From the IMG/VR virus record IMGVR_UViG_3300042905_005059, positions 9,279 to 73,278 of that record: DNA of 64,000 nucleotides, one strand, 5' to 3'. Within the stretch, counting starts at the first letter, position 1, and every line of letters starts with the position of its first letter. A model generated the notes under the pieces. The model was not told where the DNA came from. It worked only from the letters and a program-made list of their open reading frames with translations, and made no database searches. Below are positions 29,576 through 55,461 of the stretch, piece by piece. This stretch comes from a virus. Its lineage: Duplodnaviria > Caudoviricetes. A program made the position numbers and the translations under genes.

Positions 29576-29581
29576 CGCTAT

Positions 29582-29609
29582 ATTATGCGCCTAATTGCTC
29601 TTTTGTCAA
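29582..29609 (-). promoter_or_regulatory. Sigma-70-type leaderless promoter
   Basis: TTGACA-N16-CATAAT, 6 nt before ATG 29575. Confidence 0.75.
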
Positions 29610-30743
29610 GAAGTAGAAGTAATCAGCCTCTTCCTTAAATGCTTCGTCCACCTTATCTGGAACACCGAAAGAATCATTCCTAACGTTTTCGCTATTTAAA
29701 TTATTTTTACAATGCCATCTGCTGGCAAAAGTTTTTCCTCCTTTAATTATTATTTTATTAGTCTTAAAGTATACTTTGCTTAAATCAAGACCGTCTAAAA
29801 ACTTCATGTCCAAAAAGTTAAGTTTGTTTACTTTTTTAAAATTTAGGTATTTAATTTTTTCTTTATTTATATCTTCTAGAGGCAAGGATGAGATTATTTC
29901 GTAGCTAAATTTATTGTCCTCTAAGAACTGAACAAAATCTGGAGAAGAGTTTTTTTCAATTTTGTAGTATATCTTTTTTATGTTATTTCTATGCTTAAAA
30001 AGCAAGTTGGAGTCTATAGCTTTAGAAGTAACAATGCTAAGAGAATTTAAAGTTAATTGAGCGTTCAAGTTGTGCTCTGAAAATAGGTAGTCCATCCTGA
30101 CTATCATTTCATTTTTATTGCCAGCTTTAATTTCAAAACAAGAGTCTGGAATGATTTCTAAACTTTGAGTGGCGTATACTTTGCCGACTGATATGGTACT
30201 ATCGAAATCATGATCTTCATTGAGAAGATTCTTAAGTATTTTTTTAGCTATCTCTTCTGGCCTAATGTTATTTATTTTCGCGCTTGTCGGATTATGAAAA
30301 TTCTTACGCTCTTCTTTTGAATGAATAATAGACTCTTCTGAAACTAGAGTATTATCTAAAGAATAGTCAACCTTTAAAAAACATTGCGAGATACTAAACT
30401 CTGAGGCTATGAGAGAGTACAACTTAGAAGAGCCGCAAAACATTTCAGAGTTTCTAATTATATAGGCTTTTTGATTAATAGAAGCAGAGTTATCAATGTA
30501 TGTATGATTAAAATAATACTTCTTGTCTTCTATAAAATGTACTATATTTATCTTATGGTTTTTTAAAATTGGCTCTATAAGCTCTATAACTCTGAACCAA
30601 AATACATAATGGTAATTGGGATCAGAAGATTGAGTATCAAGAACAATATATTTATTGAAATCTAAAGGATAGAACTTCTCATATATATAAGCGGATTTTG
30701 GCTCTAGACCAGTAGTGACAGAAAAAGATTTTAATAAGTTCAT
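29583..30743 (-). CDS. GT9-like glycosyltransferase C-terminal half plus extension
   Basis: N-terminal region parallels 49362..49928 (MNLLKSFSVTTGL vs MHIIEAYSLYSGL; WFRVIELIEPILKNHKINI vs WQEVISLISPELKSKNINI; ends IRPEEIAKKI vs FSPEEVAETF). Confidence 0.5.
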   Translation of the reverse strand: MNLLKSFSVTTGLEPKSAYIYEKFYPLDFNKYIVLDTQSSDPNYHYVFWFRVIELIEPILKNHKINIVHFIEDKKYYFNHTYIDNSASINQKAYIIRNSEMFCGSSKLYSLIASEFSISQCFLKVDYSLDNTLVSEESIIHSKEERKNFHNPTSAKINNIRPEEIAKKILKNLLNEDHDFDSTISVGKVYATQSLEIIPDSCFEIKAGNKNEMIVRMDYLFSEHNLNAQLTLNSLSIVTSKAIDSNLLFKHRNNIKKIYYKIEKNSSPDFVQFLEDNKFSYEIISSLPLEDINKEKIKYLNFKKVNKLNFLDMKFLDGLDLSKVYFKTNKIIIKGGKTFASRWHCKNNLNSENVRNDSFGVPDKVDEAFKEEADYFYFLTKEQLGA

Positions 30744-33172: not shown

Positions 33173-33201
33173 ATTATGGTGTTTTTGGGCCGAAAAGTCA
33201 A
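33173..33201 (-). promoter_or_regulatory. Sigma-70-type leaderless promoter
   Basis: TTGACT-N17-CATAAT, 7 nt before ATG 33165. The -35 box overlaps the dnaE TGA stop. Confidence 0.75.
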
Positions 33202-37154: not shown

Positions 37155-37159
37155 ACTCT

Positions 37160-37187
37160 AGTATGGGTCAACGACTCAAGAAGTCAA
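37160..37187 (-). promoter_or_regulatory. Sigma-70-type leaderless promoter
   Basis: TTGACT-N16-CATACT, 5 nt before ATG 37154. The -35 box overlaps the upstream TGA stop. Confidence 0.65.
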
Positions 37188-42430: not shown

Positions 42431-42459
42431 ATTATGAGGCTCTTCTCAACGCTTGTCAA
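42431..42459 (-). promoter_or_regulatory. Sigma-70-type leaderless promoter
   Basis: TTGACA-N17-CATAAT, 6 nt before ATG 42424; overlaps the gmd 3' end. Confidence 0.78.
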
Positions 42460-43510
42460 GAAGGTAAATGTCATGCTTTACCATTTTATCTACCAGATTT
42501 AAGAAGTTGATCTTTGGATTCCAGCCCAGCTCTTTTCTTGCTGGCGTAGAATCTCCAACAAGAATATCTACTTCTGCTGGTCTATAGAATTTAGAGTTAA
42601 TAGAAATAAGCGTGGAAGACAGAGGTTCTCTCTTTAATGCGTATTCAGTGGTAATAGAATACTCTTCGTTCAAATTCGAGCCGTGCCAATTACCATCAAT
42701 GTTAGCAATCTTAAATGCAACTTCAATAAATTCTCTTATAGAATGAGTTTCGTTGCTTGATAAAACATAATCTTTCGGCTTATCTTGGTTTAACATTCTC
42801 CAGACTCCATCGACAAAATCTTCAGAATCTGACCAGTCTCTTTTGGCGTCTAGATTGCCAAGCTCAATTGGAGCAAATGGCTGATTATCTAAAATAGCTT
42901 TATAAATTCTTGCTACTCCTTTTGTGATTTTTCTGGTTACAAACTCTTCTCCGCGCTTAGTACCTTCGTGATTAAAAAGAATACCATGAACAGCATAGAG
43001 ATTGTAAGATTCTCTATAAACCTTAACGGCATGCCTTGCTGCTGCCTTAGATGCGCCATATGGACTTCTTGGCCTAATTGGATGATAGATGTCTTGAGGA
43101 CAGTAAGCTACGTCGCCAAACTCTTCGCTTGATCCAGCAGAGTAAAATTTACAATCCGGTTTAAATCTACGAATAGCCTCAAGGCATCGAACAACTCCAG
43201 TAGCATTGGTGTCAAAAGTTTGCAATGGAATTTCCCAGCTACATCCAACAAAACTTTGTGCTGCAAAATTAATAAAATAATCAGGTTGGATTTCTTTAAC
43301 TGCATTATCTACGCTAACGCTGTCAGACAGGTCTCCATAAATGATCTTGAACCTAGCATCGCCTAAAAAAGCAGAGCAGTTTATAAAGTTAGGATTTGAG
43401 CTGCGCCTAATCATTCCAAATATTTGGTAATTAGTGTTCTTAAGTAGATATTCTACCATGTTTGCGCCATCTTGCCCTAGAATGCCTGTTACTAGTATTT
43501 TCTTATTCAT
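42446..43510 (-). CDS. gmd: GDP-mannose 4,6-dehydratase
   Basis: ITGILGQDG-type Rossmann start (VTGILGQDGA), NFAAQSFV, SSEEFG, PRSPYGASK, GILFNHE, FVTRKIT, LGNLDAKRDW, RPAEVD. Confidence 0.95.
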   Translation of the reverse strand: MNKKILVTGILGQDGANMVEYLLKNTNYQIFGMIRRSSNPNFINCSAFLGDARFKIIYGDLSDSVSVDNAVKEIQPDYFINFAAQSFVGCSWEIPLQTFDTNATGVVRCLEAIRRFKPDCKFYSAGSSEEFGDVAYCPQDIYHPIRPRSPYGASKAAARHAVKVYRESYNLYAVHGILFNHEGTKRGEEFVTRKITKGVARIYKAILDNQPFAPIELGNLDAKRDWSDSEDFVDGVWRMLNQDKPKDYVLSSNETHSIREFIEVAFKIANIDGNWHGSNLNEEYSITTEYALKREPLSSTLISINSKFYRPAEVDILVGDSTPARKELGWNPKINFLNLVDKMVKHDIYLLDKR

Positions 43511-43511
43511 A

Positions 43512-43871
43512 TTAATATCCTATTTTAACTTCTTTTACTTCGTTATTAAAAAATTTATTTTGAAGAGCTACCTTCTTTTGGTATCTGTTATAATTAGAAT
43601 CATCTACTAATTTTGCCAAACCATTATCTTTCTTGACCTGATCTACTAAATCGAATGTATTTTCGTTAGCGTCTCTAAGGTTTTGATATTCTTCGCTTGC
43701 TACAATTTGTTCATATAGATCAAAGCCGATTTGGCTTATGATCTCTTTTGACAAATTTTGATAGTTTGATACAAGCTTTTCTTTGTCTTGTTTGGAAGAT
43801 TTAATTATTTTAACTTGAGTAATACTCAATATGTCGAAAGCAAAACCTTCGTCTAGTGAAATTTTAAGCAT
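43512..43871 (-). CDS. Hypothetical protein (DUF6165-like, sugar-locus associated)
   Basis: ISLDEGFAFDILSITQVK...N..RYQKK resembles small helical proteins found in sugar loci. Confidence 0.4.
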   Translation of the reverse strand: MLKISLDEGFAFDILSITQVKIIKSSKQDKEKLVSNYQNLSKEIISQIGFDLYEQIVASEEYQNLRDANENTFDLVDQVKKDNGLAKLVDDSNYNRYQKKVALQNKFFNNEVKEVKIGY

Positions 43872-45030
43872 ATTTATTTATGGTTGTTATTAAAGAGTCT
43901 ATTTGATTTTTAGTTACCTTTGGATGCAGGCCAACATAAAAGCCGTTGTTGTGCAAAAATTCGCTATTTGGAAAGTTTTTATAATCTCCGAATTGCTTAT
44001 AACAAGTTTGGCGCAGAAGATTGCCTGATATAATTGGTCTAGTTTCTATTAAATTTCTTTCGCATTCTTTAATAATAGCGGTCAAATCAATTGCATTTTT
44101 AAATACAATTGGAATGCAAAACGCTACATGGTCTCTATCTGGGAACTCTTCTGGCAACAAAAGCTTTTCATTTGGAAGACATTCCTTAAAGTAATTAAAT
44201 AATTCAGTTCTTGAGGCTATGTATTCACTAGCTCTTTTAAGATCAATTCTTCCAATTAGAGCATGTATATCTGAGTTTCTATAATTATTTCCGAGCAAGA
44301 AAAAGTCGAACCTCTCGTTTACGTCTTTGTTCAAGAACTTAGACTTTTGATCGTTTGGCAAAGCTCTGACTAAACCGTGGTTTCTCGCTAATAGAAAATA
44401 ATTATACTCATCATCATCATTGGTGAAAATAAATCCGCCTTCCACACTTTGGAGTTGATGGCCGAAGTATGTACTTGTGGTAGAGGTAAAGAAAGAGGAG
44501 ATGTTCTTGCCAGCAAACGAGCCAAAAGTATTCTCGCAGTTATCCATCAAGACTCTAACTTTATATTTTTTAGATATTTTTTCAAGCCTTTCAACATCTG
44601 GAACAAAGCCCAAAAGAGAAGTTATAAAAATTGCTTCTATAGATTTATCTTTAGATACGACATCTTCTACAACGTCGAGATCCATAGAAAAATCACTTAA
44701 ATTAATATCCACAAAAACTGGCTCAAAGCCTTCTCTTACAAAAGGAGAAACTGAAGTAGTCCAAGTTGTTGATGGGAAAATGATCTTTCTGATTTTATTA
44801 GTGGAGTTCTTGAGAGAGTCTTTCAAGTAACAGGCTAAAATAGTATTAGCTGTCGAGCCGCTGGATACAAAAACAGCATGCTTAGCCCCTACAAAATTGG
44901 CCATTTCTGATTCAAAATTCTTTACATGCTTATCCATTGTCCACCTATTGGACGGAAGCAAGAAAAAAAGAGCCAACTTTATTCTATCTAACCAAGTAAA
45001 CTGAGAGTCATTCAAGTTCCATTTTTGCAT
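43864..45030 (-). CDS. colD: ColD-like GDP-4-keto-6-deoxy-D-mannose 3-dehydratase (DegT/DnrJ fold, His in place of Lys)
   Basis: WTMDKHVKNFE, VFVSSGSTAN, DNCE, TSTYFGHQLQSVEGG (His at the Schiff-base Lys position), RNHG, ETRPIISGN. Two genes from gmd. Confidence 0.75.
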   Translation of the reverse strand: MQKWNLNDSQFTWLDRIKLALFFLLPSNRWTMDKHVKNFESEMANFVGAKHAVFVSSGSTANTILACYLKDSLKNSTNKIRKIIFPSTTWTTSVSPFVREGFEPVFVDINLSDFSMDLDVVEDVVSKDKSIEAIFITSLLGFVPDVERLEKISKKYKVRVLMDNCENTFGSFAGKNISSFFTSTTSTYFGHQLQSVEGGFIFTNDDDEYNYFLLARNHGLVRALPNDQKSKFLNKDVNERFDFFLLGNNYRNSDIHALIGRIDLKRASEYIASRTELFNYFKECLPNEKLLLPEEFPDRDHVAFCIPIVFKNAIDLTAIIKECERNLIETRPIISGNLLRQTCYKQFGDYKNFPNSEFLHNNGFYVGLHPKVTKNQIDSLITTINKYA

Positions 45031-46045
45031 ATGTTTCTATTTCTTCCTTTATTTTATTAATTGTATTGTCCCAAGTAAAATTTTTAAGCACGCTTTCTTT
45101 GTGTTTTTTTGCTATATCTTTATATAGAGAATAATTAATAAAAGAATGATGCAAAGATTCTAAAATATTTTGCCTGATAACTCTTTCGCCATATATCTGA
45201 CCAGAAAATAAATTGAGAAAATGTTCTGGAAAGACATTTATTCCTTTGCTTTGCCACTCTTTGATAGCGTAAGAATCTACGACTTTCATTTCAGTTTTTA
45301 TTTTTATTGGCTGACTCCATTCAGGTATGAATTCTTTTAGAGCAGAACCAAGCGTGACTATGGCTGGAGTTCCACACAGAACAGAGTCCATGGGGTTCAT
45401 GCCAAAAGAAGTAGTATGGTTTGTGTATAAAAATAAATGGCTTTTATTATAAAGAGTTCTTATAGAGCATTCAGTCAGAGGTTTATTTATATATATGATT
45501 TTTTCACATTTTAACGACTCTACGTATTTAGCAAAAGCTTCATTTTTGCCATCTTTTATTATTAGTTGGGTATCTATATTTTTACTAAACTCAATAAATG
45601 CTGGAATAAGTTCTTCTAGACCGCTTCTTTCGTTGCTAGAATTAACAGTTAAATATGTAAATTTAGAAAACTTTTCTTCTCCAGTCTCAAACCATATATC
45701 TTTATCAGAGCCTAAATGAACGCTTGAAACTTTTTCATATCCAGAGTTTATTATATTATTTTTGGCAAAATCGCTAATAGCCAAGACTAGCGGATTATAT
45801 TTTTTGAGTTTTTGAATAACTATATTAGGCGTTAAAGAATATTCGCAAGCCAGCAGAGGAATTTGCCTTGCCCACCTTTGTTCAGTGTCGAATACTTCTG
45901 GATAAACAACAAAAGTTTTGGGGTCGTTGATATCGCCTAAAAGGTTATACTTGGAAAAAAATTTGTTTAGCTGTCTGGCGACAATAGTAAATGATCCAAA
46001 TTCATTTCCATTATAAAGTTTGTCGTTATAGGCGAATAATTTCAT
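45008..46045 (-). CDS. GT4-like glycosyltransferase
   Basis: LAISDFAK, FTYLTVNSSNERSGLEELI, TSFGMNPMDSVLCGTPAIVT. Confidence 0.75.
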   Translation of the reverse strand: MKLFAYNDKLYNGNEFGSFTIVARQLNKFFSKYNLLGDINDPKTFVVYPEVFDTEQRWARQIPLLACEYSLTPNIVIQKLKKYNPLVLAISDFAKNNIINSGYEKVSSVHLGSDKDIWFETGEEKFSKFTYLTVNSSNERSGLEELIPAFIEFSKNIDTQLIIKDGKNEAFAKYVESLKCEKIIYINKPLTECSIRTLYNKSHLFLYTNHTTSFGMNPMDSVLCGTPAIVTLGSALKEFIPEWSQPIKIKTEMKVVDSYAIKEWQSKGINVFPEHFLNLFSGQIYGERVIRQNILESLHHSFINYSLYKDIAKKHKESVLKNFTWDNTINKIKEEIETYAKMELE

Positions 46046-46886
46046 CTGTTTTGCAAAGTAGTTCTTCTATTTTATGATTGGAGGAGAACGAATCAGAAAG
46101 TATATTTTGAGTTAAATTTCCTTCTGGAGCAAGAGCGGTCTTATTAGAGTGATGATTTGGCAACCAAACACTTAAAAGATTTATTTGCGGAACCATTGAG
46201 TAAGCTCCAGTAACCCACATAGAGCCAGAGTCTGTTCCTATTATTATCTTGCATCCAAGAGATTTAAAAATTTGATCGCAGAAATTTAAATTTGTCATCT
46301 TGTGATAGTTTGGGCTGTCAATTATTGTTGGCTCATTAGTAAAGCCGAAATGCAAAACCTTGTGATTTTTAGAAAGTACTTTTAGGACTCTAACCCACCA
46401 GTCTAAAGAAGGACTTCTTCGTGAGTTAGAAGATCCATATCCAGCAAATGGCCAAATAGCTATTGCATTTTGATCTTTAATTTTTTCTGTTTGTGGGTAT
46501 AATTTTGGAATTTTATCATTAGCGGCTAAAGAAATATATTTATTATAAAGATCTTCTGATGCCATTAGCATAGTTTCCTCACAGCAGCTTCTGTAATTAT
46601 ACCAGTCTTGCTCTCGCGGGTGATGGGGAAAACAGTTAAATTTTAAATTAAAATTGTCCAAAGAAAGGTTTTTAGAGTCTTGGTCGTCAAAACTTTCTGT
46701 AGCATTTGTTATGTATACATTATCTATAAGAGGATGATTTCTGAATAGGTCTGCTGCTTGAGAGCATTTTCTAGCAATAGGAAATGTTATCTTGCAATTT
46801 GGGTGCGAGTTCTTTAATATTGTGAGACCCGGCAAAGACATTACAATATCACCAATTAATGAACCTCTAGAAAACAATATATTCAT
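46026..46886 (-). CDS. GT9-like glycosyltransferase
   Basis: SLIGDIVMSLPGL...HPLIDNV and IIGTDSGSMW (GT9 DSG motif). Confidence 0.8.
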   Translation of the reverse strand: MNILFSRGSLIGDIVMSLPGLTILKNSHPNCKITFPIARKCSQAADLFRNHPLIDNVYITNATESFDDQDSKNLSLDNFNLKFNCFPHHPREQDWYNYRSCCEETMLMASEDLYNKYISLAANDKIPKLYPQTEKIKDQNAIAIWPFAGYGSSNSRRSPSLDWWVRVLKVLSKNHKVLHFGFTNEPTIIDSPNYHKMTNLNFCDQIFKSLGCKIIIGTDSGSMWVTGAYSMVPQINLLSVWLPNHHSNKTALAPEGNLTQNILSDSFSSNHKIEELLCKTDEIIRL

Positions 46887-47704
46887 AGAATATAAGACGA
46901 GAACAGCTCTTTGTTATCAATCAAGAATTTGGGAAAAGATTCATCTATTTGGACTTTAGAAAATTCTGTTTGCTTTTTGCTTAGATTTTCGAGATGAATA
47001 AAGAATTTCTTATCTGAAGACATGAAGTTGTCAAAATGACTTTTAAACTCTTCAATAGTAGGAAGAGCAGATTTGTCAAATGGCTCTATGCAAGACAAGC
47101 TTTTTTCGTAAACTTTTTGATATCCACCAAGCCAACTGAAATGCCATCCGCAATTGGTAGCCTTATCGAGAAAGTCTTTATTGTTTCTAAGGGTCTGAGG
47201 GGAGTAATTTTTTAACACCTTGTTGGTGCAGCAAACTGTTCCTATCCATTTTCTATCCGTTGCTTTAAGATTTAAGAAATACGCATAGAAATCCATCTCA
47301 ATAGAAAAAATTGGATTTTGTTTTTTAGAAAGGATTTCTGGGGCTAAGGAAATTATTTCAGAGCTTGGTATCTCATCAAGATCAGAAATTAAAACGATAT
47401 CATCATCATTAGCTTGCAGCGAAGATATTCCATCTCGAATTTTATTTCTTTGGAAGTTTTCCATTTCCCATAGATTTTTTTCATTAGATGGGCACTCTTC
47501 AGCTTTGACTTTTACATGGACAATCTTATCTAGGAATTTGGAGAACCTTTTTTTGTTAACATCGAAATATAAAGGTTTAGGTTTTAGGCTTTGAGTAAGC
47601 TCGGCTTCCACCAAAACAAACTTATCAACAGCAGAATCAAGTTCATTTAGTCTTATCTCTAATAAGTCTAGTTCATTAAAAAATGGAAAAGCGTCTATAA
47701 TCAT
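46883..47704 (-). CDS. GT17-like (GnT-III-type) glycosyltransferase
   Basis: FFNELDLLEIRLNEL..VDKFVLVEA..T, ENFQRN, SDLDEIP, GWHFSWLGG. Confidence 0.85.
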   Translation of the reverse strand: MIIDAFPFFNELDLLEIRLNELDSAVDKFVLVEAELTQSLKPKPLYFDVNKKRFSKFLDKIVHVKVKAEECPSNEKNLWEMENFQRNKIRDGISSLQANDDDIVLISDLDEIPSSEIISLAPEILSKKQNPIFSIEMDFYAYFLNLKATDRKWIGTVCCTNKVLKNYSPQTLRNNKDFLDKATNCGWHFSWLGGYQKVYEKSLSCIEPFDKSALPTIEEFKSHFDNFMSSDKKFFIHLENLSKKQTEFSKVQIDESFPKFLIDNKELFSSYIL

Positions 47705-48429
47705 ATCTTTTTGTAGGAGAAAGTCGTGCCAATATCATTTTCTGTTTGATTGAAATATTGAATATTAAAATCTAACCATCCAGTATTTTCATTTAATGGA
47801 GAAATTGTTGACATGTCGTTTCTATTTAAAACTATTTTTTTATTTACTCTTGTGTAACAATTAGCAATCCACATTCCAGCGCCGCTATTGACTCCTATCA
47901 GAATAGACGAGCTTGATATGAGTTTTGCAGTGTCCCACATATTTAATCCAAGTTTATTTATAAATGGAGTCTTTTTATCTTTAGGGCCTCCTATTTGAAT
48001 TATTTCAAAGTTTTTATATGTTTGCGCTATATGATCTATAGTAGAATCACTTAAAGTTCCTCCCTCACTTTGACCGGTAGTATGAACAGTAATTCTATCT
48101 GGCTTTATTTCTGAGTCTTCAAACTTGTATATTCTTGGATGCCTTAAATTGATTTTAAAATTATGGAAACCAAGCCGTTCAAAAGATTTGTGCTTAAAAA
48201 ACCTTTCTGATGTAGATAGAAATCTTTCAGCAGGGAATTGAACAGGCCATAAGTCTATTTTTTCTGAGTACTTGTGATTGCCTCTGACGACATATGGGTT
48301 ATTATCATAAACCCAGCAATTGCAAAGATCTAATACCTTTTCTCCAGTATTATCAAAAATTATCTCTGGTAAAGCGGCAAACTGAAGCTTATCTCCAATT
48401 CCGGGGCCATTGTTTTCTAATGCTATCAT
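47701..48429 (-). CDS. GT9-like glycosyltransferase
   Basis: GPGIGDKLQF, IIQIGG, LIGVNSGAGMWIA. Confidence 0.6.
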   Translation of the reverse strand: MIALENNGPGIGDKLQFAALPEIIFDNTGEKVLDLCNCWVYDNNPYVVRGNHKYSEKIDLWPVQFPAERFLSTSERFFKHKSFERLGFHNFKINLRHPRIYKFEDSEIKPDRITVHTTGQSEGGTLSDSTIDHIAQTYKNFEIIQIGGPKDKKTPFINKLGLNMWDTAKLISSSSILIGVNSGAGMWIANCYTRVNKKIVLNRNDMSTISPLNENTGWLDFNIQYFNQTENDIGTTFSYKKI

Positions 48430-48433
48430 TTGT

Positions 48434-49378
48434 TTAACTATTTAGTATGCTTTTATGAGTGTTTACGCTATAGATTCTTCTTATAGCTTGATTATCAAAA
48501 TCTGTTATTTGAGGAACTAGGATATTAGCTTTATTTTTTAGTATTCTTTTCATTAAGTCACATACATATAGATGATCATAATTGAGAGGCAAACATGTCT
48601 CTGGGAAAGGCATCCATCTTATCTGGTGGCTTAAATAAGGAAAATGAGGATATGCAACTTGCCTGCTCATGCAAAGAGTGGGAACGTCATAGGCGTACCC
48701 AGCATATTTTAAACCGCTGTCGATAGAGAACATCAATTTTGCTCCAGAGATAACAAGGAAAGCGTTCTTCAAGTCAACGTCTAGAATTTCCACTCTATCG
48801 TTATTTTCAAAATCTTTATAAAAAAATCTTACATCAGCGGTGCATATTAACTTCACTTTGATAAAAGAGCTTGTTTCTTTTATTAGATTGTTTATATATT
48901 CTTGCTCTAAGCCGTGGTCGTTTTTAGAATTAGATACTAAATGAAAAGCAATATAATCTTCTGATGGAGTTATTCTATTAAGATCTGGCTTAGGAAAAAA
49001 TCTATAATATCTCATCCAGTCGAAATCAAAATTGCACCATTTCAAAGAATCTATATGCAAATCATAAAACTTATCATAAGACTCCATCTCTGCCCTGATT
49101 TCATCTGGTACGTTTTCTAATGCTCCAATATAAGATTTGTCTAGCCCAAATTGACAATTAATAAAAAAATCTTTATATTTTTTTCTTGGTATTATCTTGA
49201 TCTCTTTATAGTAAGATGGGTAAAGCGCTTCTAAGCCTTGCTTTTGAAAAGTCTTACCTTCGCTGTCTATATAAGCGGTTATTTCTGAGTCTGGATACTT
49301 CTCTTTTATAGCGTAAACAAAACGATTCCCCAAAAGACAATCTCCAAGCCCGCCTTCTAATCTAACTGATATGTTCAT
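48434..49378 (-). CDS. GT-B glycosyltransferase (GT9/GT11-like)
   Basis: VRLEGGLGDCL, YIAFH, MFSIDSGLKYAGYAYDVPT. Confidence 0.65.
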   Translation of the reverse strand: MNISVRLEGGLGDCLLGNRFVYAIKEKYPDSEITAYIDSEGKTFQKQGLEALYPSYYKEIKIIPRKKYKDFFINCQFGLDKSYIGALENVPDEIRAEMESYDKFYDLHIDSLKWCNFDFDWMRYYRFFPKPDLNRITPSEDYIAFHLVSNSKNDHGLEQEYINNLIKETSSFIKVKLICTADVRFFYKDFENNDRVEILDVDLKNAFLVISGAKLMFSIDSGLKYAGYAYDVPTLCMSRQVAYPHFPYLSHQIRWMPFPETCLPLNYDHLYVCDLMKRILKNKANILVPQITDFDNQAIRRIYSVNTHKSILNS

Positions 49379-49928
49379 GTTTTTTTAATATTTTAATAAA
49401 AGTTTCAGCGACTTCTTCTGGAGAAAATTGATCCATATATTCTCCTCCTTTTTCATATGAATATGTTGGTCTATTACCTTTTAAATCAGCCAAGAAAAAA
49501 TGCTGAATGTTTGGATCTCCAAAATAAGGCTTGCAACAATTAAAACACTGATGAGCGCCAAATAGAATCAACATTGGCTTATTAAATGAGGAAGCCAAAT
49601 GCATGCAAAAACTATCAATTCCAAGCAAGAATATAGATTTCTCCATTAGCCAAGCTGTTTGGTTAAATGTTATATTGTCTATTTTTTTACAGCCTTCGTA
49701 TTCTTTATCTAAGGAATCTACTTGAATTATATTTATATTTTTAGATTTTAATTCTGGAGAAATTAAAGAAATAACTTCTTGCCATTTTTTATAAAACTTA
49801 GCTTCTCCTTTAGAGTGGGGATTAAAAAATATAAACTTTCCAAAATCTCCATCGACAAGTTCACTTTGCATGAATGGCTTGTCTATTTTAAGCCCAGAGT
49901 ATAAAGAATATGCTTCTATGATATGCAT
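49362..49928 (-). CDS. GT9-like glycosyltransferase, C-terminal domain only
   Basis: FIFFNPHS...KFYKKWQEVI, LLGIDSFCMHLASSFNKPMLILFG. Confidence 0.75.
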   Translation of the reverse strand: MHIIEAYSLYSGLKIDKPFMQSELVDGDFGKFIFFNPHSKGEAKFYKKWQEVISLISPELKSKNINIIQVDSLDKEYEGCKKIDNITFNQTAWLMEKSIFLLGIDSFCMHLASSFNKPMLILFGAHQCFNCCKPYFGDPNIQHFFLADLKGNRPTYSYEKGGEYMDQFSPEEVAETFIKILKKHEHIS

Positions 49929-49929
49929 T

Positions 49930-50259
49930 TTAATATTTGATATTGAATGCTATTTTGTCTTCTCCATTATGCATGTAAGTCAAGAATCTTTGAGTGGCGG
50001 CATGTGGCAAGAAGCAAATATCAAAATAACCAATATGCTCTCCTATTCCTTCCATGAGTACGAGATTGTCCATGCGCTGATCGTAGTCAATTATTTCGTC
50101 TATATAGGGGTTGCCTTTCAAGATATCTCGAAACTGAGGGCTGGTGGCAAAATATAATTTATAGTTTTTATAAGTTTCCCTGAGACTTCTTAGCAATGAT
50201 GTGCATAGTAAAACGTCTCCAGCGGCGAGTGGCATTACAAAAAGAATTTTTTTATCCAT
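49930..50259 (-). CDS. GT9-like glycosyltransferase, N-terminal domain only
   Basis: KILFVMPLAAGDVLLCTSLLRSLRETY....YFATSPQFRDILKGNPYIDEII. Confidence 0.75.
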   Translation of the reverse strand: MDKKILFVMPLAAGDVLLCTSLLRSLRETYKNYKLYFATSPQFRDILKGNPYIDEIIDYDQRMDNLVLMEGIGEHIGYFDICFLPHAATQRFLTYMHNGEDKIAFNIKY

Positions 50260-51025
50260 ATTTTTCTATAAGTTCTTTGTCCAATTCGACTTTTACTTTT
50301 ATGTCTGGATATAGTTTTATCTTTCCATATTTGCGAATTTCTTCACAAAATAAAATATGCTCGCAGTCGCCATTTGTTCTCCAGTTACAAAAATTTAAAG
50401 GATGGCTTTTTATAAATACAAAGCCGCCGAATGAAGATTTTACTTCTATCGGCTGATCATTGAATAAAGACTGTCTATCAAATATGTTTGCAAATGGATT
50501 GCATGACCATATTAATGCGCGAACATTATATTGATCGTATAAAGCCGCAACATCATAATAAGAATCTTTACCGCAAATGCATACCTTACATTTTATATTT
50601 TGAGAAATATAAGGCGTGTACATTACGGTTTCTTCATCTATTTTAGACAGATATTTACTTACTATATCTTTTTCAAAAATAACATCGCTATCAAAAATTA
50701 TAGAATAATCTGTTTTTATAAGTCTCCCCAATTCAATCATTCTATTTCTATAGTATGTCATCTTTATCATTCTTGAATCATTTATGACATTGCCTTCTTT
50801 TGAGAAAGATATTTTTTCAGAAAGCAGCTTTCCATCTCTTGAGCTAAGCCAGCTTTTTAATATTTGAACTGTGTTATCTACAGAGTCGTTCTCATAGAAA
50901 TAATATGAAAAAGATATTTCTGGATTATTTTTTTCTATATCCTCAAGTTGATTTAATGTTCTATGAATGTAAGACTCCGAATCTCTCCACATAGAAAACA
51001 CACTAATTTTATTGGCTGCTTGCAT
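50252..51025 (-). CDS. GT-A glycosyltransferase (CAP59/GT69-like)
   Basis: RDSESYI, FYENDSVDNT, YYRNR, IIFDSDV (DxD), YYDVAAL, VKSSFGG, DCEH. Confidence 0.65.
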   Translation of the reverse strand: MQAANKISVFSMWRDSESYIHRTLNQLEDIEKNNPEISFSYYFYENDSVDNTVQILKSWLSSRDGKLLSEKISFSKEGNVINDSRMIKMTYYRNRMIELGRLIKTDYSIIFDSDVIFEKDIVSKYLSKIDEETVMYTPYISQNIKCKVCICGKDSYYDVAALYDQYNVRALIWSCNPFANIFDRQSLFNDQPIEVKSSFGGFVFIKSHPLNFCNWRTNGDCEHILFCEEIRKYGKIKLYPDIKVKVELDKELIEKYG

Positions 51026-51041
51026 TTCTTGAGATATAGTT

Positions 51042-51071
51042 ATTTTACGATTAAGCCTATTGAAAAGTCAA
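51042..51071 (-). promoter_or_regulatory. Sigma-70-type promoter
   Basis: TTGACT-N18-TAAAAT, 16 nt before ATG 51025. Confidence 0.5.
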
Positions 51072-51090
51072 GATTCTTTTAGTTAACATT

Positions 51091-51879
51091 TTATACAATG
51101 TTTTCATTCATAAATTGAATTACTTTATCTTTTTCTTTTTCAAAAGTGGTTAGTCTATAAACTTTCATGACGCCATCTTTTTCGTATTGATTAATAAACA
51201 TGGCATCCGTTGCTTCATCTTTCGGGCGTCCAACTATGCAAATTGTATTAATTCTTTGCATCGAAGACATTGATTTAAAACAACTATCTGAGCCTATTAA
51301 AGTTTTGCAATACTTTACTGCGGACAAACTATGTAGAATGTTTTTAAAGCTAACAAACTTTACATTTTCAGATTCTTTCAAACCATAATTAGAAAAATCT
51401 TTTGCAGATCCAAAAATTAAATAATTTCTATCATTATCATTGATGATTTTTTGAACTACATCAGCAGGGATTTCTTTAGCTGGCAAATTAAAATGATCAT
51501 ATACAGAACAAGAAAACTGACTTATAAACGGATGGATTCCTATAATGTCTTTTTTAACAGGAAATGAGTTTACAAAATTTTCTGCGACTGAGTTGGCTTC
51601 ATCCCCAAAATCTAGCTCAGAATAAAAAGCTCTAGGAGTTTCTGATATGTTTTTCTGGTCTTCGTCTGCATGGTTAGCCTTTATAAGATCTACTTGATCA
51701 TTATGACTATCTATATCATTAAAATTATAAAAATGACAATTTGAAACGCCTAGGTGGTCGAATATATCTTTTGCGTTTTCAAAATGTGTATGAACCAAAT
51801 ATTCACTGTTTGGATTATTTTTAATAAACCAAAAATTTTGAAGCAAATCCCCCACACCGCCTCTGACGTAAAATTTCAT
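51091..51879 (-). CDS. GT9-like glycosyltransferase
   Basis: VRGGVGDLLQ, IGIHPF, LIGSDSCFKSMS. Confidence 0.65.
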   Translation of the reverse strand: MKFYVRGGVGDLLQNFWFIKNNPNSEYLVHTHFENAKDIFDHLGVSNCHFYNFNDIDSHNDQVDLIKANHADEDQKNISETPRAFYSELDFGDEANSVAENFVNSFPVKKDIIGIHPFISQFSCSVYDHFNLPAKEIPADVVQKIINDNDRNYLIFGSAKDFSNYGLKESENVKFVSFKNILHSLSAVKYCKTLIGSDSCFKSMSSMQRINTICIVGRPKDEATDAMFINQYEKDGVMKVYRLTTFEKEKDKVIQFMNENIV

Positions 51880-51894
51880 ATAGTTAGAATGTAT

Positions 51895-51934
51895 TAGGGC
51901 CTAACTATGGAAATTTCCATAAAATTAGGCCCTA
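51895..51934. repeat. 40-bp imperfect inverted repeat
   Basis: TAGGGCCTAA (51895-51904) / TTAGGCCCTA (51925-51934) flank the perfect palindrome TATGGAAATTTCCATA (51906-51921). Confidence 0.85.
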
Positions 51935-51955
51935 GTTTTGTAAATTTCTATGTAA

Positions 51956-53926
51956 TTAGCGAACTGGGCAAGCGCCGCTGGAGCATTCTGCCATATCTAA
52001 CATTTCAGAGCTGCTGATCGCCAAGGAGTCGACGGATTTAATTTTAGCCATAGCTAAACGATAAGTCTCTTCATCAATTTCTTGGTATGGAGCTTGTTTG
52101 AATCCGTGATTCTTAAACAACAAGAAACTTACGCTTTTAATGTTATGCTCGTAATTGTCTTTCAGCCAAAGCTTAAGGGACTCAAGTTCTTCGGGTTTGT
52201 AATAAGCGGTAACAGAAACTGCGTTGTCTGACCAATCGGTTTGAAGCTTCTTGACCATGTCCAGTTGCTTTAGGACATCCATGTCCTTGGCTAGAATAGA
52301 TCCTTCTGGGGTTTTGCATGGGAAGTAAACAACCACTGTGTCTCGGTTCTCGGTTCCGTCAAAGTTAATAAGGAACTCAACATGATAACCAATATCTTTG
52401 CAGTTCTGGACTAGAGCGTCAGAGCTAGACATGCGCACAGTACGCATATAATACTCGCTAAACGCTGGGTGAACGCCGGGAGTAGCGCCGCCAAGAAGGC
52501 TTAGCGTTCCAGAAGGCTTGATAGTCGTGAGTTTAATGCTTTCAGGCCAGCCGCGAAGCTTGCTCCAAGAGCAATCAAAAGAACGCAAAGCAACATAACA
52601 ACTATCAAGCCAATCAAGCTTGTGTAAAGACTGGCAAACGCCAGTAATGCCAAGACCGAGCCGCATGTTCTTGTGAACAATTTTATTAGTTTCTTCATGT
52701 ATGAACGGCAAAGAGGCGATGGCTTTTTGTGTTTTGTAAAGAAGAATAGAGCAATCAATTAGCTCTTCTTTTGATGTAATGTTATTTAGATAAAGCTCAC
52801 TGAGATTACAGCATTCGTAGTTAGAAAGACTAATCTCGGCGCAAGGATTTGTCATTTCGCAATTGTCAGTGTCTGTTGGATACATCAAGTTGTCTGACAT
52901 GGGGCCGTCCTTGATGCGGCCAAATTTCTGAGACAATGGCAAATTAAAGAAACCGTAAGGTTCTCCATTAGCGTAACCACTGTCTTTATTTATTTCATAT
53001 CCATTCTTCCAAATTTCTTCAAGCACATGATCGTAACTATCTGCGTAGATAGTATTGTTGCTCATTGCTCTCCAGTTAGGCACATTGCCAGTTCCCCAAT
53101 TCTTAGCCCGGAGATAAAGAATGTCGTCTGGATCGCCTAGAGCAATCTCAGCGCTTCTGCGGACGTTGCCTGCAACGACAACGCTTCCAATAATGTTGCA
53201 AATATCAAGAACATCAATAGATCTTAATTTTTTTCCTTCTCTTGATTGGAATATTTTTGAGATCTTAACGATTCCATCAATAAGGACTTGTGGACCGCTA
53301 GCTTTCCCGCCAAAACCCTTGATTGGCTCTCCGTATCCTCTGATGAGGATGGTTGAGTAAGAAAAAGACTTACCTGTAACATAAAAAGCTTCCAAAGTTT
53401 TTGAAAGCAAATTAACCCAACCTTCGCGTTTGTCTGGAACAATGTAATCAGCGTCTTTAGATCCTTCATGAATAACCTTTACACCTTTCTTAATTTTTGG
53501 AAGCTCATGCACATCTTCTCTGCGTATGCTGTACCCAACCCCGCCTCCGAGCATCAAGTTCTCAAATAAAAACAAAAATGCATTCGGCTCTCTCATAGCT
53601 ACTGCCCAGCAATTAAGCAAACTATTCGCACCGAATCTATCTACAGTGGAAGTCCCAAGCTGCCAAAGCATTCGGCCCGCAAAATTACATTTAAGATTAA
53701 AAACATAATCATAAATTCTCTCTGCTTCAGATTCTGTATAACCAGCGCCGATCTTTTGGGCTCCGTTGATGCATCTCTCTACGGTTTCGTACCACTCTTC
53801 AGAGACGCCGTCTTCTTTGATTCTTGCGTAGGTTCTTTTATATACTATATATCCTAACCCATTAAATCCCCAGTTAGGTTGTTTGTTTTTATATTTATTT
53901 ACAAATTCTTTAGATAATACATTCAT
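51956..53926 (-). CDS. nrdJ: Class II (B12-dependent) ribonucleotide reductase, monomeric RTPR type
   Basis: VYKRTYAR, AGRMLW, NCW, GNVRRSA, TNPCAEI, CNLSE, TIKPSGT and C-terminal ECSSGACPVR. Likely start is ATG 53926. Confidence 0.93.
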   Translation of the reverse strand: MNVLSKEFVNKYKNKQPNWGFNGLGYIVYKRTYARIKEDGVSEEWYETVERCINGAQKIGAGYTESEAERIYDYVFNLKCNFAGRMLWQLGTSTVDRFGANSLLNCWAVAMREPNAFLFLFENLMLGGGVGYSIRREDVHELPKIKKGVKVIHEGSKDADYIVPDKREGWVNLLSKTLEAFYVTGKSFSYSTILIRGYGEPIKGFGGKASGPQVLIDGIVKISKIFQSREGKKLRSIDVLDICNIIGSVVVAGNVRRSAEIALGDPDDILYLRAKNWGTGNVPNWRAMSNNTIYADSYDHVLEEIWKNGYEINKDSGYANGEPYGFFNLPLSQKFGRIKDGPMSDNLMYPTDTDNCEMTNPCAEISLSNYECCNLSELYLNNITSKEELIDCSILLYKTQKAIASLPFIHEETNKIVHKNMRLGLGITGVCQSLHKLDWLDSCYVALRSFDCSWSKLRGWPESIKLTTIKPSGTLSLLGGATPGVHPAFSEYYMRTVRMSSSDALVQNCKDIGYHVEFLINFDGTENRDTVVVYFPCKTPEGSILAKDMDVLKQLDMVKKLQTDWSDNAVSVTAYYKPEELESLKLWLKDNYEHNIKSVSFLLFKNHGFKQAPYQEIDEETYRLAMAKIKSVDSLAISSSEMLDMAECSSGACPVR

Positions 53927-53972
53927 AGATCGAAAGGTAGGATCAGTTACACAACTTGTAGCGAAATTGGAA

Positions 53973-54347
53973 TTAGTCAAGGTTAATGTTTGGGAGTTCT
54001 GATGGATTGACTTTGCTTTTATATTTCATGCCTTTTCTTTTCTTGGAGTATTTTTCCTCAGCTTTTTTGCGGAGAGGGTCTGTGCCTCCATATTTAGAAG
54101 CTCTTTTTTTGCTTAATTCTTCTGAGTAATCCCATATCTCGCCAAGAGTGCCTTTCATTCTGCCTGTTTTTTCTACAAATTTTGACGATGAGTCTACGTC
54201 AAATTCCGTATCTATTTGAGCATTAGGTACAGTAAATACTCTTTCATACTTAATTCCATCTTCAGAGTAATTATGCTCGTCATTCATTCCTTGAAAAACT
54301 GAAATGACTTTTCCTGTTTTTGGATTTTTAAAAAGATAAAGTGGCAT
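53973..54347 (-). CDS. FmdB-like small protein lacking Cys
   Basis: MPLYLFKNPKTGKVISVFQGMNDEH parallels the FmdB MPxYxYxCxxCGxxFExxxxM pattern. Confidence 0.5.
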   Translation of the reverse strand: MPLYLFKNPKTGKVISVFQGMNDEHNYSEDGIKYERVFTVPNAQIDTEFDVDSSSKFVEKTGRMKGTLGEIWDYSEELSKKRASKYGGTDPLRKKAEEKYSKKRKGMKYKSKVNPSELPNINLD

Positions 54348-54348
54348 A

Positions 54349-55431
54349 TTAAATTAAAGATAGAAGTTTCTTTGCAGTATCAGAGTAAGTAAATTTATCT
54401 TGAAGTTTAAGCCCTTCATGATTAAGCCTGTCTTTCTCTACTCTTTGGATAGCTTGTTCGCACCCAGCAATAAATTCATCTTCACTAAAATCAAAAATGT
54501 TACCTTGATTAAATGGAGTGCCTTTGGAGAAAAACTTACCATCATAAACTTCAGTCTTTCCCATTGGCTCTACAAGTACAGAGTTATCTTTGTTAGCCCA
54601 TTCCTTGTAGGCAGTAGCATTCAAAATTACAGCATGCTTGCCCAAAGCAACAGACTGAAACTCTGGCAATCCCCATCCTTCTGCGCCAGACATTCCAATA
54701 ATAATATCTGCTGAATTTAAATAGTCATTATAGATAGAATTCTTAGGCATATTCCCAAGGAAAGAAACGTTGAAATAAGTTTTACCTTCTAGAATTGTAC
54801 CATATATGACTTTTAATTCATTTTGATCTTGATAAAATTGATTGTTGATAGCGCATTGGAGAGAGTATTTATTATTCTTTCCAAATTTCTTAACCCAAGC
54901 TTTAATTATTTTTGCGTGGTGTTTTCTTTTCTCGAACTTGCCGCAAAGATTAAATGTTATTCTATTATCTTGGAAATATGTTTTATTTGTTCTTTTGAAA
55001 TGCTTTGAGTCAAAGCCAAGAGGAACAACATCAGATTGAATTCCATGATTTGCAAAAACAGATTTAGTATAAGAGGAGCTGCAGCAAACGGTGCTATTCT
55101 TAAGAATATTTGATTCTATATTTGTTAGCTGATCTGTTTCATGGAAAGTGAAAAGGATTTGTTTGTCAGAATAGGTTCTTATTGAATCATTAATATGCCA
55201 AAGCCTAATAACAGGATACTTTCTGCTGTGTTTTGCAAACGAATCGTTATGATTTGCTACTACCCAATTAATAAAGTCTTGATCAAAATCATAAGCGCTA
55301 AAATCTATTTGATGTTCAGAAGCTTTGAATATGGAAGGATTAAGTCCCATCTTATAAAACTCATAAAGCAAATTAAAACTAACTTGCCCAAAACTTAAAG
55401 AATTTAACGGTACATGAACAGCAAATTGCAT
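54349..55431 (-). CDS. GT4-like glycosyltransferase
   Basis: FTFHET, VVPLGFD, CGKFEKRKHH, SGAEGWGLPEFQSVALGK. Confidence 0.85.
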   Translation of the reverse strand: MQFAVHVPLNSLSFGQVSFNLLYEFYKMGLNPSIFKASEHQIDFSAYDFDQDFINWVVANHNDSFAKHSRKYPVIRLWHINDSIRTYSDKQILFTFHETDQLTNIESNILKNSTVCCSSSYTKSVFANHGIQSDVVPLGFDSKHFKRTNKTYFQDNRITFNLCGKFEKRKHHAKIIKAWVKKFGKNNKYSLQCAINNQFYQDQNELKVIYGTILEGKTYFNVSFLGNMPKNSIYNDYLNSADIIIGMSGAEGWGLPEFQSVALGKHAVILNATAYKEWANKDNSVLVEPMGKTEVYDGKFFSKGTPFNQGNIFDFSEDEFIAGCEQAIQRVEKDRLNHEGLKLQDKFTYSDTAKKLLSLI

Positions 55432-55461
55432 AAAAAAACCTACCTATTGTTATAGGTAGGT
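55432..55461 (-). terminator. Intrinsic terminator
   Basis: ACCTACCTAT-AACA-ATAGGTAGGT followed by a T tract on the - strand, downstream of 55483..55758. Confidence 0.75.

Follow-up and report, generated by a model that had tools for sequence, protein, structure and literature searches.

Hypervariable phage islands rich in glycosyltransferase (GT) genes are already known in pelagimyophages and cyanomyophages. The available text of PMC7029224 and PMC12801897 describes these GT or 'LPS-gene' islands (LPS, lipopolysaccharide) in pelagimyophages and in T4-like cyanomyophages (S-SCSM2R, S-SCSM1 and P-SSM2), and the 13 GTs counted in this literature may be the record for a marine phage. Here we analyse a GT-rich locus carried by a tailed phage (Caudoviricetes) and compare it with such systems. 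The stretch under study, hereafter the window, comprises 64,000 nucleotides (positions 9,279 to 73,278 of the IMG/VR record IMGVR_UViG_3300042905_005059), and the locus, hereafter the island, lies at 45008-55431 of the window. A preliminary description had placed about ten GT genes in this interval and two more at 29.6-32.6 kb, and had viewed their products as soluble enzymes that build glycans on virion proteins or on DNA. Genes are named below by their first coordinate (Table 1).

The count of about ten GT genes was borne out by family, fold and profile evidence. The island contains 12 tightly packed open reading frames (ORFs), all on the minus strand, and ten of these are GT genes: two GT4, one GT17, one CAP59-like GT-A, four GT9-like GT-B and one split GT9 pair. 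The interval is not made of GTs throughout, as 51956-53980 encodes a class II ribonucleotide reductase and 53973-54347 a small protein of 124 aa. The two further genes at 29.6-32.6 kb were also confirmed, and they revealed a second split GT9 design. With this pair included, the window encodes eleven GT enzymes from twelve genes, namely three GT4-type, one GT17, one CAP59-like and six GT9-like GT-B enzymes, two of the six being made of two polypeptides. Twelve GT-type genes per 64 kb is far above the content of a usual phage. We propose that the island would serve the stepwise synthesis of a complex oligosaccharide by a membrane-free set of phage-encoded enzymes.

Glycosyltransferase families of the island

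All three GT4-type genes match the phage GT family phrog_2170 (5e-21 to 2e-13). The cut-off of PF00534 is passed by 45008, while 54349 and 30740 fall slightly below it. The family profile of 54349 also matches PDB entry 5i45 (4e-7) and the chlorovirus GT B736L (3oy2, 7e-4); the match of the 30740 family profile to B736L reached 0.04. The GT17 protein has a DXD motif whose residues D108, D110 and E111 are invariant in 25/25 relatives. The CAP59-like protein (50252) has a D-S-D triplet in its sequence, and a clear member of the CAP59 family (54.9 bits) occurs in the cassette of one relative. A crude hydropathy scan of the island ORFs found no transmembrane protein, in agreement with the early view of soluble enzymes without membrane anchors.

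No Pfam, PHROG or NCBIfam model matched 47701, 48434 or 51091 at the thresholds used, and neither these three proteins nor 46026 matched PF01075 even at E ≤ 10. The sole library match of 46026 was a weak N-terminal one to heptosyltransferase I. The cut-off of PF01075 is reached only by the split C-half at 49362-49928 and by the homologue of 29583 in a complete relative (G001, 166.5 kb). When the profiles of the 48434 and 51091 families were run against PDB sequences, no match reached significance (WaaF and TibC at E values of 1.5-1.9), hence a fold search was needed. For 48434, 237 relatives were found, and the model predicted with 37 of them aligned had a pLDDT (predicted local distance difference test) of 93.8. 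Its best Foldseek matches were WaaC (1.6e-10), WaaF (1.8e-9, template modelling (TM) score 0.60), the GT9 entry 3tov and TibC (6.6e-6, TM 0.45). The model of 51091 (43 relatives, pLDDT 92.6) matched best 3tov (8e-5) and WaaF (TM 0.59). EarP (2e-4) and other GT-B enzymes came close behind, and the natural-product GT-B enzymes VinC, SnogD, CalG3 and OleD were among the weaker matches. Compared by hhalign with the other GT9-like families, the 51091 family reached just 24-42%. On its predicted fold, 51091 is clearly a GT-B enzyme and loosely a GT9. The 46026 family aligns with the 48434 family over the full length (hhalign 95.6%, E 1e-8, 228 columns), and the 47701 family aligns with the 46026 family in the C-domain (97.6%, E 4e-12; 31% with the 48434 family). 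The tie of 46026 and 47701 to GT9 runs through this profile comparison only.

These families share an invariant N-terminal Gly-Asp pair (G12/D13 in the 48434, 47701 and 46026 families, G10/D11 in the 51091 family). Given the N-terminal alignment to heptosyltransferase models, we take its Asp to be the equivalent of Asp13, the catalytic base of WaaC. The GT9-like families also share a C-terminal D/N-S-G motif with WaaC/WaaF. Since the four GT9-like ORFs hold by fold, by profile comparison and by the invariant Gly-Asp, the observation of a GT island is confirmed. Many relatives of 48434 and 51091 carry the JGI label 'ADP-heptose:LPS heptosyltransferase'. In the NCBIfam scan, no island protein matched the BAHT model, the heptosyltransferase matches being to LPS-type models, and family scans of the window found no genes for ADP-heptose synthesis. 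Small cytidylyltransferase-like genes are present in the cassettes of some relatives. A GDP-sugar is more likely than ADP-heptose to be the donor of the GT9-like enzymes.

The split of the GT9-like enzyme in the island is conserved. At the 49930/49362 junction a stop codon is followed by one base and an ATG, and the same junction is found in loci L001 and L002 (83-88% identical). Separate halves, joined differently, occur in L012, L036 and L074 (27-46% identity). Relatives of the C-half, found within a range of 103-329 aa, are half-size in 31/31 cases, without any fused form. The ratio of nonsynonymous to synonymous substitution rates (dN/dS) is 0.06 for the N-half and 0.07-0.08 for the C-half. 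The two genes at 29.6-32.6 kb make up a second split GT9, because the tail of the GT4-like protein is an N-half and the next gene starts with a C-half. Residues 528-580, in the tail of the 616-aa protein (30740), match the free GT9 N-half at 1e-4, and the family profile matches residues 8-67 of 3tov at 1.3e-3. The nearest relatives of the free N-half are themselves the tails of GT4-like proteins of 570-650 aa. Residues 1-178 of 29583 match the free C-half at 1e-11, and the G001 homologue matches PF01075 at 4e-8. This gene overlaps 30740 by ATGA and is thereby translationally coupled to it. Both splits fall at the same domain boundary, and we infer that the two halves would assemble into one enzyme. 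In the stretch 28880-32590, a conserved 231-aa protein without assigned function stands after the split pair, at the border to the giant plus-strand genes.

Table 1. Genes of the glycan system and their neighbours in the window, with the evidence for each assignment (aa, amino acids).
Feature	Position	Strand	Evidence
GT9 C-half plus ~200-aa domain without known match	29583..30743	-	similarity to free C-half
Core GT4-like plus C-terminal GT9 N-half, 616 aa	30740..32590	-	phrog_2170 2e-13; PF00534 1.3e-5, 25.2 bits, below cut-off
GDP-mannose 4,6-dehydratase (GMD), conserved cassette flank	42446..43510	-	PF16363 7e-104; TIGR01472 9e-103
Conserved 119-aa protein without family match	43512..43871	-	relatives in 18/72 loci; dN/dS 0.09
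ColD-like pyridoxal/pyridoxamine phosphate (PLP/PMP) enzyme, DegT family	43864..45030	-	PF01041 8e-56
GT4, variable cassette member	45008..46045	-	PF00534 8e-9, 35.7 bits vs cut-off 26.4; phrog_2170 5e-21
GT9-like GT-B, cassette member	46026..46886	-	hhalign to 48434 family; TIGR02193 4.7e-4
GT17 (GT-A fold)	46883..47704	-	PF04724 1.6e-30, 106.8 bits vs cut-off 26
Short GT9-like protein, 242 aa, cassette member	47701..48429	-	hhalign to 46026 family
Core GT9-like GT-B, cassette anchor	48434..49378	-	predicted fold, Foldseek
C-half of split GT9-like enzyme	49362..49928	-	PF01075 3e-6, 27.2 bits vs cut-off 22
N-half of split GT9-like enzyme	49930..50259	-	heptosyltransferase I-III models 1e-3 to 6e-3, residues 4-69
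CAP59-like (GT69-type) GT-A, strain-specific insertion	50252..51025	-	PF11735 1.4e-6, 28.6 bits vs cut-off 28.8
GT-B, loosely GT9-like	51091..51879	-	predicted fold, Foldseek
Class II ribonucleotide reductase, outside glycan system	51956..53980	-	PF17975 3.5e-22, PF02867, PF21995
Conserved 124-aa protein without family match	53973..54347	-	52/72 loci, beside core GT4
Core GT4-like GT (GT4b)	54349..55431	-	PF00534 7.5e-6, 26.0 bits vs cut-off 26.4; phrog_2170 4e-15

A vertically inherited core and a cassette that differs between strains

In IMG/VR, relatives of the 48434 gene occur at 72 viral loci, on contigs of up to 205 kb. We searched these loci with the window proteins by tblastn, including flanks of up to 10 kb. 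Besides 48434 itself (72 loci, by design), matches were found for GT4 54349 in 53 loci, for its 124-aa neighbour and for the sigma factor in 52 each, for GMD in 40, for the 616-aa GT in 32, for GT17 in 23, for 46026 in 18 and for 47701 in 16. They were found for the ColD-like gene in 12 loci, for GT4 45008 in four, for 51091 in two and for the CAP59-like gene in one. The 124-aa protein adjoins the core GT4 wherever both are seen. Pairwise distances of 48434 correlate with those of RecA (r = 0.85, n = 30), DnaB (r = 0.93, n = 24), GT4b (0.83), the sigma factor (0.83) and the 616-aa GT (0.87), with 0.94 between RecA and DnaB as a reference; these values are inflated by near-duplicate loci and are hence descriptive only. 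GMD does not follow (0.26). Because the distances of 48434 track those of replication genes, the core GTs behave as vertically inherited. These sequence comparisons show that three GT genes (48434, 54349 and 30740) form a lineage-wide, vertically inherited core, in which 29583 is the partner of 30740. They also show that all island genes are under purifying selection, as judged from dN/dS (0.02-0.2 in all 12 genes tested). These ratios and the invariant catalytic motifs are the opposite of what the preliminary description had named as contrary evidence, i.e. a majority of catalytically dead genes.

Comparison of the loci shows that the stretch bounded by the core GT 48434 and the dehydratase/RecA flank is a strain-variable cassette of genes. 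Variability among related phages had been proposed as a check on the island, and the cassette gene set indeed changes between loci and between strains. In a first subclade (23 distinct loci), the 48434-RecA cassette has 2.3-9.7 kb and 3-13 ORFs. Our family scan covered 146 ORFs from 19 of these loci, four being left out. It identified 34 methyltransferases (FkbM, TylF-like and others) and 20 GTs of named families (nine GT17, three GT25, three GT11 and one each of GT34, GT9, CAP59, GT1 and WavE). The same ORFs include four DUF5672, six DegT-type and three RmlD-like proteins, as well as nucleotidyl- and cytidylyltransferases, GNAT, a deacetylase and a RuBisCO-like protein; GMD lies at the cassette end in 19/19 loci. 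The RuBisCO-large-chain-like protein (L021:15870-17072; PF00016, 2e-33) is encoded between methyltransferases and a nucleotidyltransferase.

In the second subclade (17 distinct loci), the cassette lies between the 48434 homologue and a Whirly gene and measures 6-8.5 kb. The scan of 83 ORFs from nine of these loci found a HAD-nucleotidyltransferase fusion and a WavE-like gene in 9/9. The variable rest comprises GT2, GT7, GT25, GT32, GT47, RXYLT1-like and sialyltransferase-like proteins, a sulfotransferase and a pyruvyltransferase. The fusion (457-473 aa, HAD phosphatase/mutase-like plus sugar nucleotidyltransferase), a 140-aa protein and the WavE-like gene stand at the cassette end in all nine loci (L028-L051).

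The closest relative (L002/L091, a contig of 69.8 kb) is collinear with the window over 1-58.5 kb, and most of its proteins are 97-100% identical. The region at 48.4-54.3 kb is only 66-91% identical: 90% for 48434, 83-86% for the split halves, 66% for 51091, 91% for the reductase and 88% for the 124-aa protein. The most divergent gene between close strains is 51091, and the CAP59-like gene is missing from both close relatives. Within 10 kb, synonymous divergence goes from 0.02 (ColD-like gene) to more than 1 (split halves and 51091). L001 has neither the CAP59-like gene nor GT4 45008, and its version of 46026, 23% identical, stands at a different position. Recombination is not confined to the island, because there are further divergent patches elsewhere; for example, the plus-strand ORFs at 9110-9685 (191 aa) and 25227-28619 (1130 aa) are 84% and 90% identical to those of the closest strain. 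The genes at 33198-38149 (polymerase, exonuclease, PHP and nuclease) are 81-94% identical to the closest strain, and their neighbours 99-100%, which marks a second patch of recombination beyond the island.

The boundary first drawn for the island left out the sugar-nucleotide genes at 42446-45030, which belong to the system. GMD scores 344 bits with TIGR01472, under the equivalog cut-off of 415. The relatives of the 119-aa protein (43512) always lie within the glycan region (18 loci). The best solved relatives of 43864 are ColD/WbdK (2gms) at 1.7e-49, against 2.7e-22 for perosamine synthase, and in the alignment its His191 falls on the residue that is mutated in the ColD entry 3b8x. By sequence, it is likely a GDP-4-keto-6-deoxymannose 3-dehydratase rather than a plain aminotransferase. 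Together with GMD, this suggests a 3,6-dideoxyhexose route without a recognisable third enzyme, in which GDP-mannose would give rise to 6-deoxy and 3,6-dideoxy hexoses.

The window is AT-rich (GC content of ~34%) and is part of a large phage genome. The plus strand carries ten huge ORFs at 1-28.6 kb (largest 3175 aa), for which family matches are nearly nil. One continuous block of minus-strand genes occupies 28.9-57.4 kb and encodes a DnaE-type polymerase, an exonuclease, PHP and PD-(D/E)XK proteins, a primase, DnaB, a RecA-like protein, the class II ribonucleotide reductase, a sigma factor and the GT and sugar genes. Genes of nucleotide metabolism lie in and around the island (reductase, dUTPase and deoxynucleoside monophosphate (dNMP) kinase). 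The small 53973 and 43512 proteins had no family match in the Pfam, PHROG and NCBIfam scans. A scan of the window for promoters and terminators did no better than shuffled sequences (59 vs 57.8 and 8 vs 8.6, respectively). One perfect hairpin of 10 bp precedes a T-run at 55438-55461 on the minus strand, within the 51-bp gap before the start codon of the core GT4; the overall terminator scan is at chance level.

Judged by its sequence relatives, the phage is part of an uncultured lineage of large aquatic phages without a close cultured relative. Neither a megablast of the island nor a tblastn of the core GT 48434 gave any match in cultured phages, and a relative of 48434 was not confirmed in the GTDB species genomes by a pattern-limited scan, which is no proof of absence. 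The phage relatives of the window polymerase are merely 26-33% identical. The records of four larger relatives have 163-205 kb; three are rated complete, and two of these have terminal repeats. One of the complete ones is G001, whose terminal repeats are direct and in which no integrase was found among 143 ORFs. That scan covered 143 of the 209 ORFs and omitted those under 95 aa, seven that cross fetch borders and nine known replication genes. On these grounds the phage looks lytic. G001 also encodes a second sigma-like protein, LRR and SET-domain proteins, an HTTM-domain membrane protein, UvdE, PhoH, Hsp20, three YopX proteins and a tape-measure-like protein of 1960 aa. According to the available text of PMC12619734, moraphages are large phages of aquatic habitats whose core GTs form four groups. 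We did not equate the two lineages, as the moraphage genomes of that text reach 307 kb and list other polymerases.

Candidate acceptors of the glycan

Family scans found no flippase, polymerase or initiating phosphoglycosyl transferase in the window, and none of these nor any ABC exporter among the cassette ORFs (0/146 and 0/83, i.e. 229 ORFs from 28 loci). Hydrophobic segments were seen in none of 178 cassette ORFs of the first subclade and in one of 160 of the second, a trypsin-like peptidase. Among the four larger relatives, PF00953 and PF01943 were absent (0/4 each), and no export family occurred among the 143 ORFs of G001. PF02397 (Bac_transf) was present in one of the four, G004, ~90 kb from the island. 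The lack of flippase, polymerase and initiating transferase, noted early on, thus extends from the window to the 229 cassette ORFs and to the records of three of the four larger relatives. In G004 (205 kb), a PEP-CTERM protein is encoded directly upstream of the small Bac_transf phosphoglycosyl transferase (L090:9135-10562, record ~170-171.5 kb). This pair sits among small genes without assigned function, far from the GT island, and may be a host-derived exopolysaccharide module.

It had been reasoned that soluble enzymes imply a glycan on virions or DNA. This does not follow, because the GTs of LPS core and O-antigen (GT9, GT4, GT25 and WavE) equally lack membrane helices and use lipid-linked acceptors that the host exports. 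Neither the virion nor the host surface is decisively supported as the site of the glycan, and the acceptor is not readable from sequence. We tentatively regard the phage's own virion proteins as the most likely target. The core GTs would set down an inner glycan, conserved like the acceptor that carries it, and the cassette enzymes would add a strain-specific outer part, to which relatives would add O-methyl, sulfo, pyruvyl and acetyl groups with many transferases of these kinds. The virion proteins would be glycosylated in the cytoplasm during assembly, and variation of the coat would change adsorption or the recognition by agents that bind or degrade virions. Cytoplasmic glycosylation of virion proteins is known in chloroviruses, mimiviruses and mycobacteriophages. 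The fold matches include GT-B enzymes that act on proteins (TibC and EarP), and the GT4-GT9 pair at 29.6-32.6 kb lies directly beside the giant, presumably structural, genes. Also in favour of virion proteins are the phage-specific, vertically inherited core GTs, the many GT families of giant-virus or eukaryote type and the lytic look of the phage. Several points weigh against virion proteins. No acceptor was identified, and no Ser/Thr-rich tails were found on the giant plus-strand proteins. The only hint of an acceptor is that the ten giant ORFs (1-28619), which are Ser/Asn-rich, have a twofold excess of [ST]-Gly-hydrophobic triplets (74 observed vs 37 expected in shuffles, z 6.2). This excess is not seen in the minus-strand enzymes and could simply reflect beta-rich fibre folds. 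A ColC-type reductase/epimerase (a second short-chain dehydrogenase/reductase) was not found in the Pfam scan of the window. The remaining points on this side are shared with the next explanation.

It is also quite possible that the enzymes remodel the host envelope. Peripheral GTs would modify lipid A-core (LPS or lipooligosaccharide, LOS) or undecaprenyl-linked intermediates at the cytoplasmic face of the inner membrane, and the host would export the products by MsbA/Lpt or Wzx/Wzy; this could block superinfection or prevent progeny from sticking to infected cells and debris. GT9, GT4, GT25 and WavE are families typical of LPS-core synthesis, deoxy and dideoxy hexoses are sugars well known from O-antigens, and LPS-core GTs need neither a membrane helix nor a phage flippase. 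Consistently, WaaC and WaaF, the top fold matches, are LPS-core heptosyltransferases, the cassettes of relatives hold GT25 and WavE (WavE-like genes in 9/9 loci of one subclade), and the ColD/GMD route gives sugars of O-antigen type. The conserved core GTs do not by themselves imply a phage-encoded acceptor, because hosts share a conserved Kdo-lipid A inner core, which could explain them as well. The island is grouped with early-type genes of replication and nucleotide metabolism, not with late structural genes, and the initiating transferase of G004 lies beside a PEP-CTERM protein. Host modification is also the published reading of the pelagimyophage and cyanomyophage islands in the available text of PMC7029224 and PMC12801897, the former favouring modification of the host O-chain for similar islands. 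However, the phage-specific core GTs diverge in parallel with replication genes, unlike recent imports from a host, and many GT families of the cassettes are of eukaryote or giant-virus type (GT17, GT7, GT11, GT34, GT47 and CAP59). The initiating transferase is found in only one of four genomes and far from the island. Moreover, the phage looks lytic, whereas known O-antigen conversion by phages is a lysogeny trait that uses membrane proteins.

The other explanations are much less probable. A small molecule, a free oligosaccharide or a host protein in the cytoplasm could be the acceptor, e.g. to yield a glycosylated metabolite or a decoy. The lack of an identified acceptor leaves room for this, and the weaker fold matches include the natural-product enzymes named above and EarP, which rhamnosylates a host-type translation factor. 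We nevertheless consider it improbable: eleven GTs in series imply a long glycan rather than the mono- or disaccharide of a metabolite, and no genes for aglycone synthesis were seen in the window or the cassettes. Glycosylation of DNA, the other target put forward in the preliminary description, is disfavoured by our results and appears very improbable. In this scenario the GTs would decorate hydroxymethylated bases against restriction, as in T-even phages and 5mYOX/ThyS clusters. The neighbouring replication and nucleotide genes (reductase, dUTPase and dNMP kinase) would fit, and phage DNA GTs can be GT-B enzymes and can add heptose or Kdo, according to the available text of bioRxiv 10.1101/2023.12.21.572611. 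Yet the known clusters in that text pair one to three GTs with modifying enzymes, whereas here there are eleven GTs and no C5-methyltransferase, 5mYOX or ThyA-type hydroxymethylase beside them in the window. The ThyA-type synthase/hydroxymethylase family PF00303 is present in two of the four larger relatives and absent from two that are complete, and C5-methyltransferase (PF00145) is absent from all four with a working control; Tet/JBP (PF12851) also scored 0/4, with a control that was silent too. G001 encodes ThyX and dCMP deaminase, i.e. a normal dTMP supply, and T4 beta-GT is not among the fold matches listed for 48434 and 51091. Finally, the GTs might be decaying passengers without function, given that several fall below Pfam cut-offs or have no family and that one enzyme is in two pieces. 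This is extremely improbable, as every gene, both split halves included, is under the constraint described above, the split form is the rule among relatives, catalytic motifs are invariant and the predicted folds have high confidence.

Returning to virion proteins as the acceptor, a possible, still doubtful, overall picture is that of a vertically inherited virion 'glycome' system belonging to a widespread lineage of uncultured aquatic phages (~160-205 kb). Its core enzymes (a GT9-like GT-B, a GT4 and a GT4 fused to half a GT9) would set the inner glycan on virion proteins, and a recombining cassette would write a methylated, sulfated, pyruvylated and deoxy-rich outer glycan, with a complexity near that of giant viruses and a serotype-like character. 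If the glycan is on the virion, phages beyond actinobacteriophages have elaborate, strain-variable sugar coats, which bears on host range, particle stability and phage recognition. If it is on the host, a lytic phage brings along a dozen enzymes to rewrite LPS. In both cases, the core-plus-cassette layout points to 48434, GT4 54349 and the split GT9 as enzymes of particular interest, and the island offers compact, soluble and divergent GT-B and GT-A enzymes for deoxy-sugar chemistry.

Comparison with known systems

Some parts of the system have counterparts in known enzymes and pathways. Alg13/Alg14 is a GT-B enzyme of two polypeptides, and there too the N- and C-terminal Rossmann halves are separate proteins. 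The family differs in the island, the arrangement is used twice, and in one copy the N-half makes up the tail of a GT4-like enzyme. The GT9 heptosyltransferases WaaC/WaaF and the protein-acting TibC/BAHT branch have the GT-B fold, the N-terminal Gly-Asp and the C-terminal D/N-S-G in common with the GT9-like enzymes of the island, but here only the split C-half passes PF01075, the model of the BAHT enzymes, which have a Cys-rich iron finger and assemble as dodecamers, is not matched, and the window has no ADP-heptose genes. The colitose pathway of O-antigen synthesis (GMD, ColD and ColC) shares GMD and a ColD-like enzyme with the same active-site His, and differs by its ColC-type reductase/epimerase, which was not found in the window. 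A Wzx/Wzy- or ABC-dependent polysaccharide locus has an initiating transferase, a flippase or exporter and a polymerase, none of which was found in the window.

Among viral systems, the resemblance to giant viruses proposed early on finds support in GT17 and CAP59/GT69, and in the GT7, GT11, GT34 and GT47 of relatives, which recall such machinery. The capsid glycans of chloroviruses and the fibril clusters of Mimivirus likewise depend on cytoplasmic multi-GT systems with nucleotide-sugar enzymes, and they likewise show a conserved part beside clade-specific parts, and methylated deoxy sugars. In contrast, the host is here a bacterium, the system is known from genes alone and the sequence similarity to the giant-virus enzymes is marginal. 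In mycobacteriophages, Freeman et al. are said to have reported in 2023 that phage-encoded soluble GTs modify capsid and tail proteins. Those phages have one to a few GTs, with C-terminal tails as acceptors, whereas here there are eleven enzymes and such tails were not found.

The closest likeness is with the pelagimyophage and cyanomyophage islands. As far as the available text on these goes, they also belong to large aquatic phages, combine many soluble GTs with deoxy-sugar genes and vary in content between close relatives, and in both cases function is predicted from the genes. The present phage is of another lineage, with a DnaE-type rather than a T4-type polymerase, and its island lies between replication genes and not in the tail-fibre region, the site of the host recognition cluster of pelagimyophages and cyanomyophages. 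The dominant family is here the GT9-like GT-B, including two split enzymes, while GT8 is reported as the commonest in pelagimyophages in the available text of PMC7029224. Three of the GTs are, in addition, a vertically inherited core. The features that set this island apart from the GT islands described so far are hence its lineage, its position in a replication module, the combination of core GTs with a swappable cassette, the sixfold expansion of GT9-like enzymes and the use, twice, of a GT-B enzyme made of two polypeptides.

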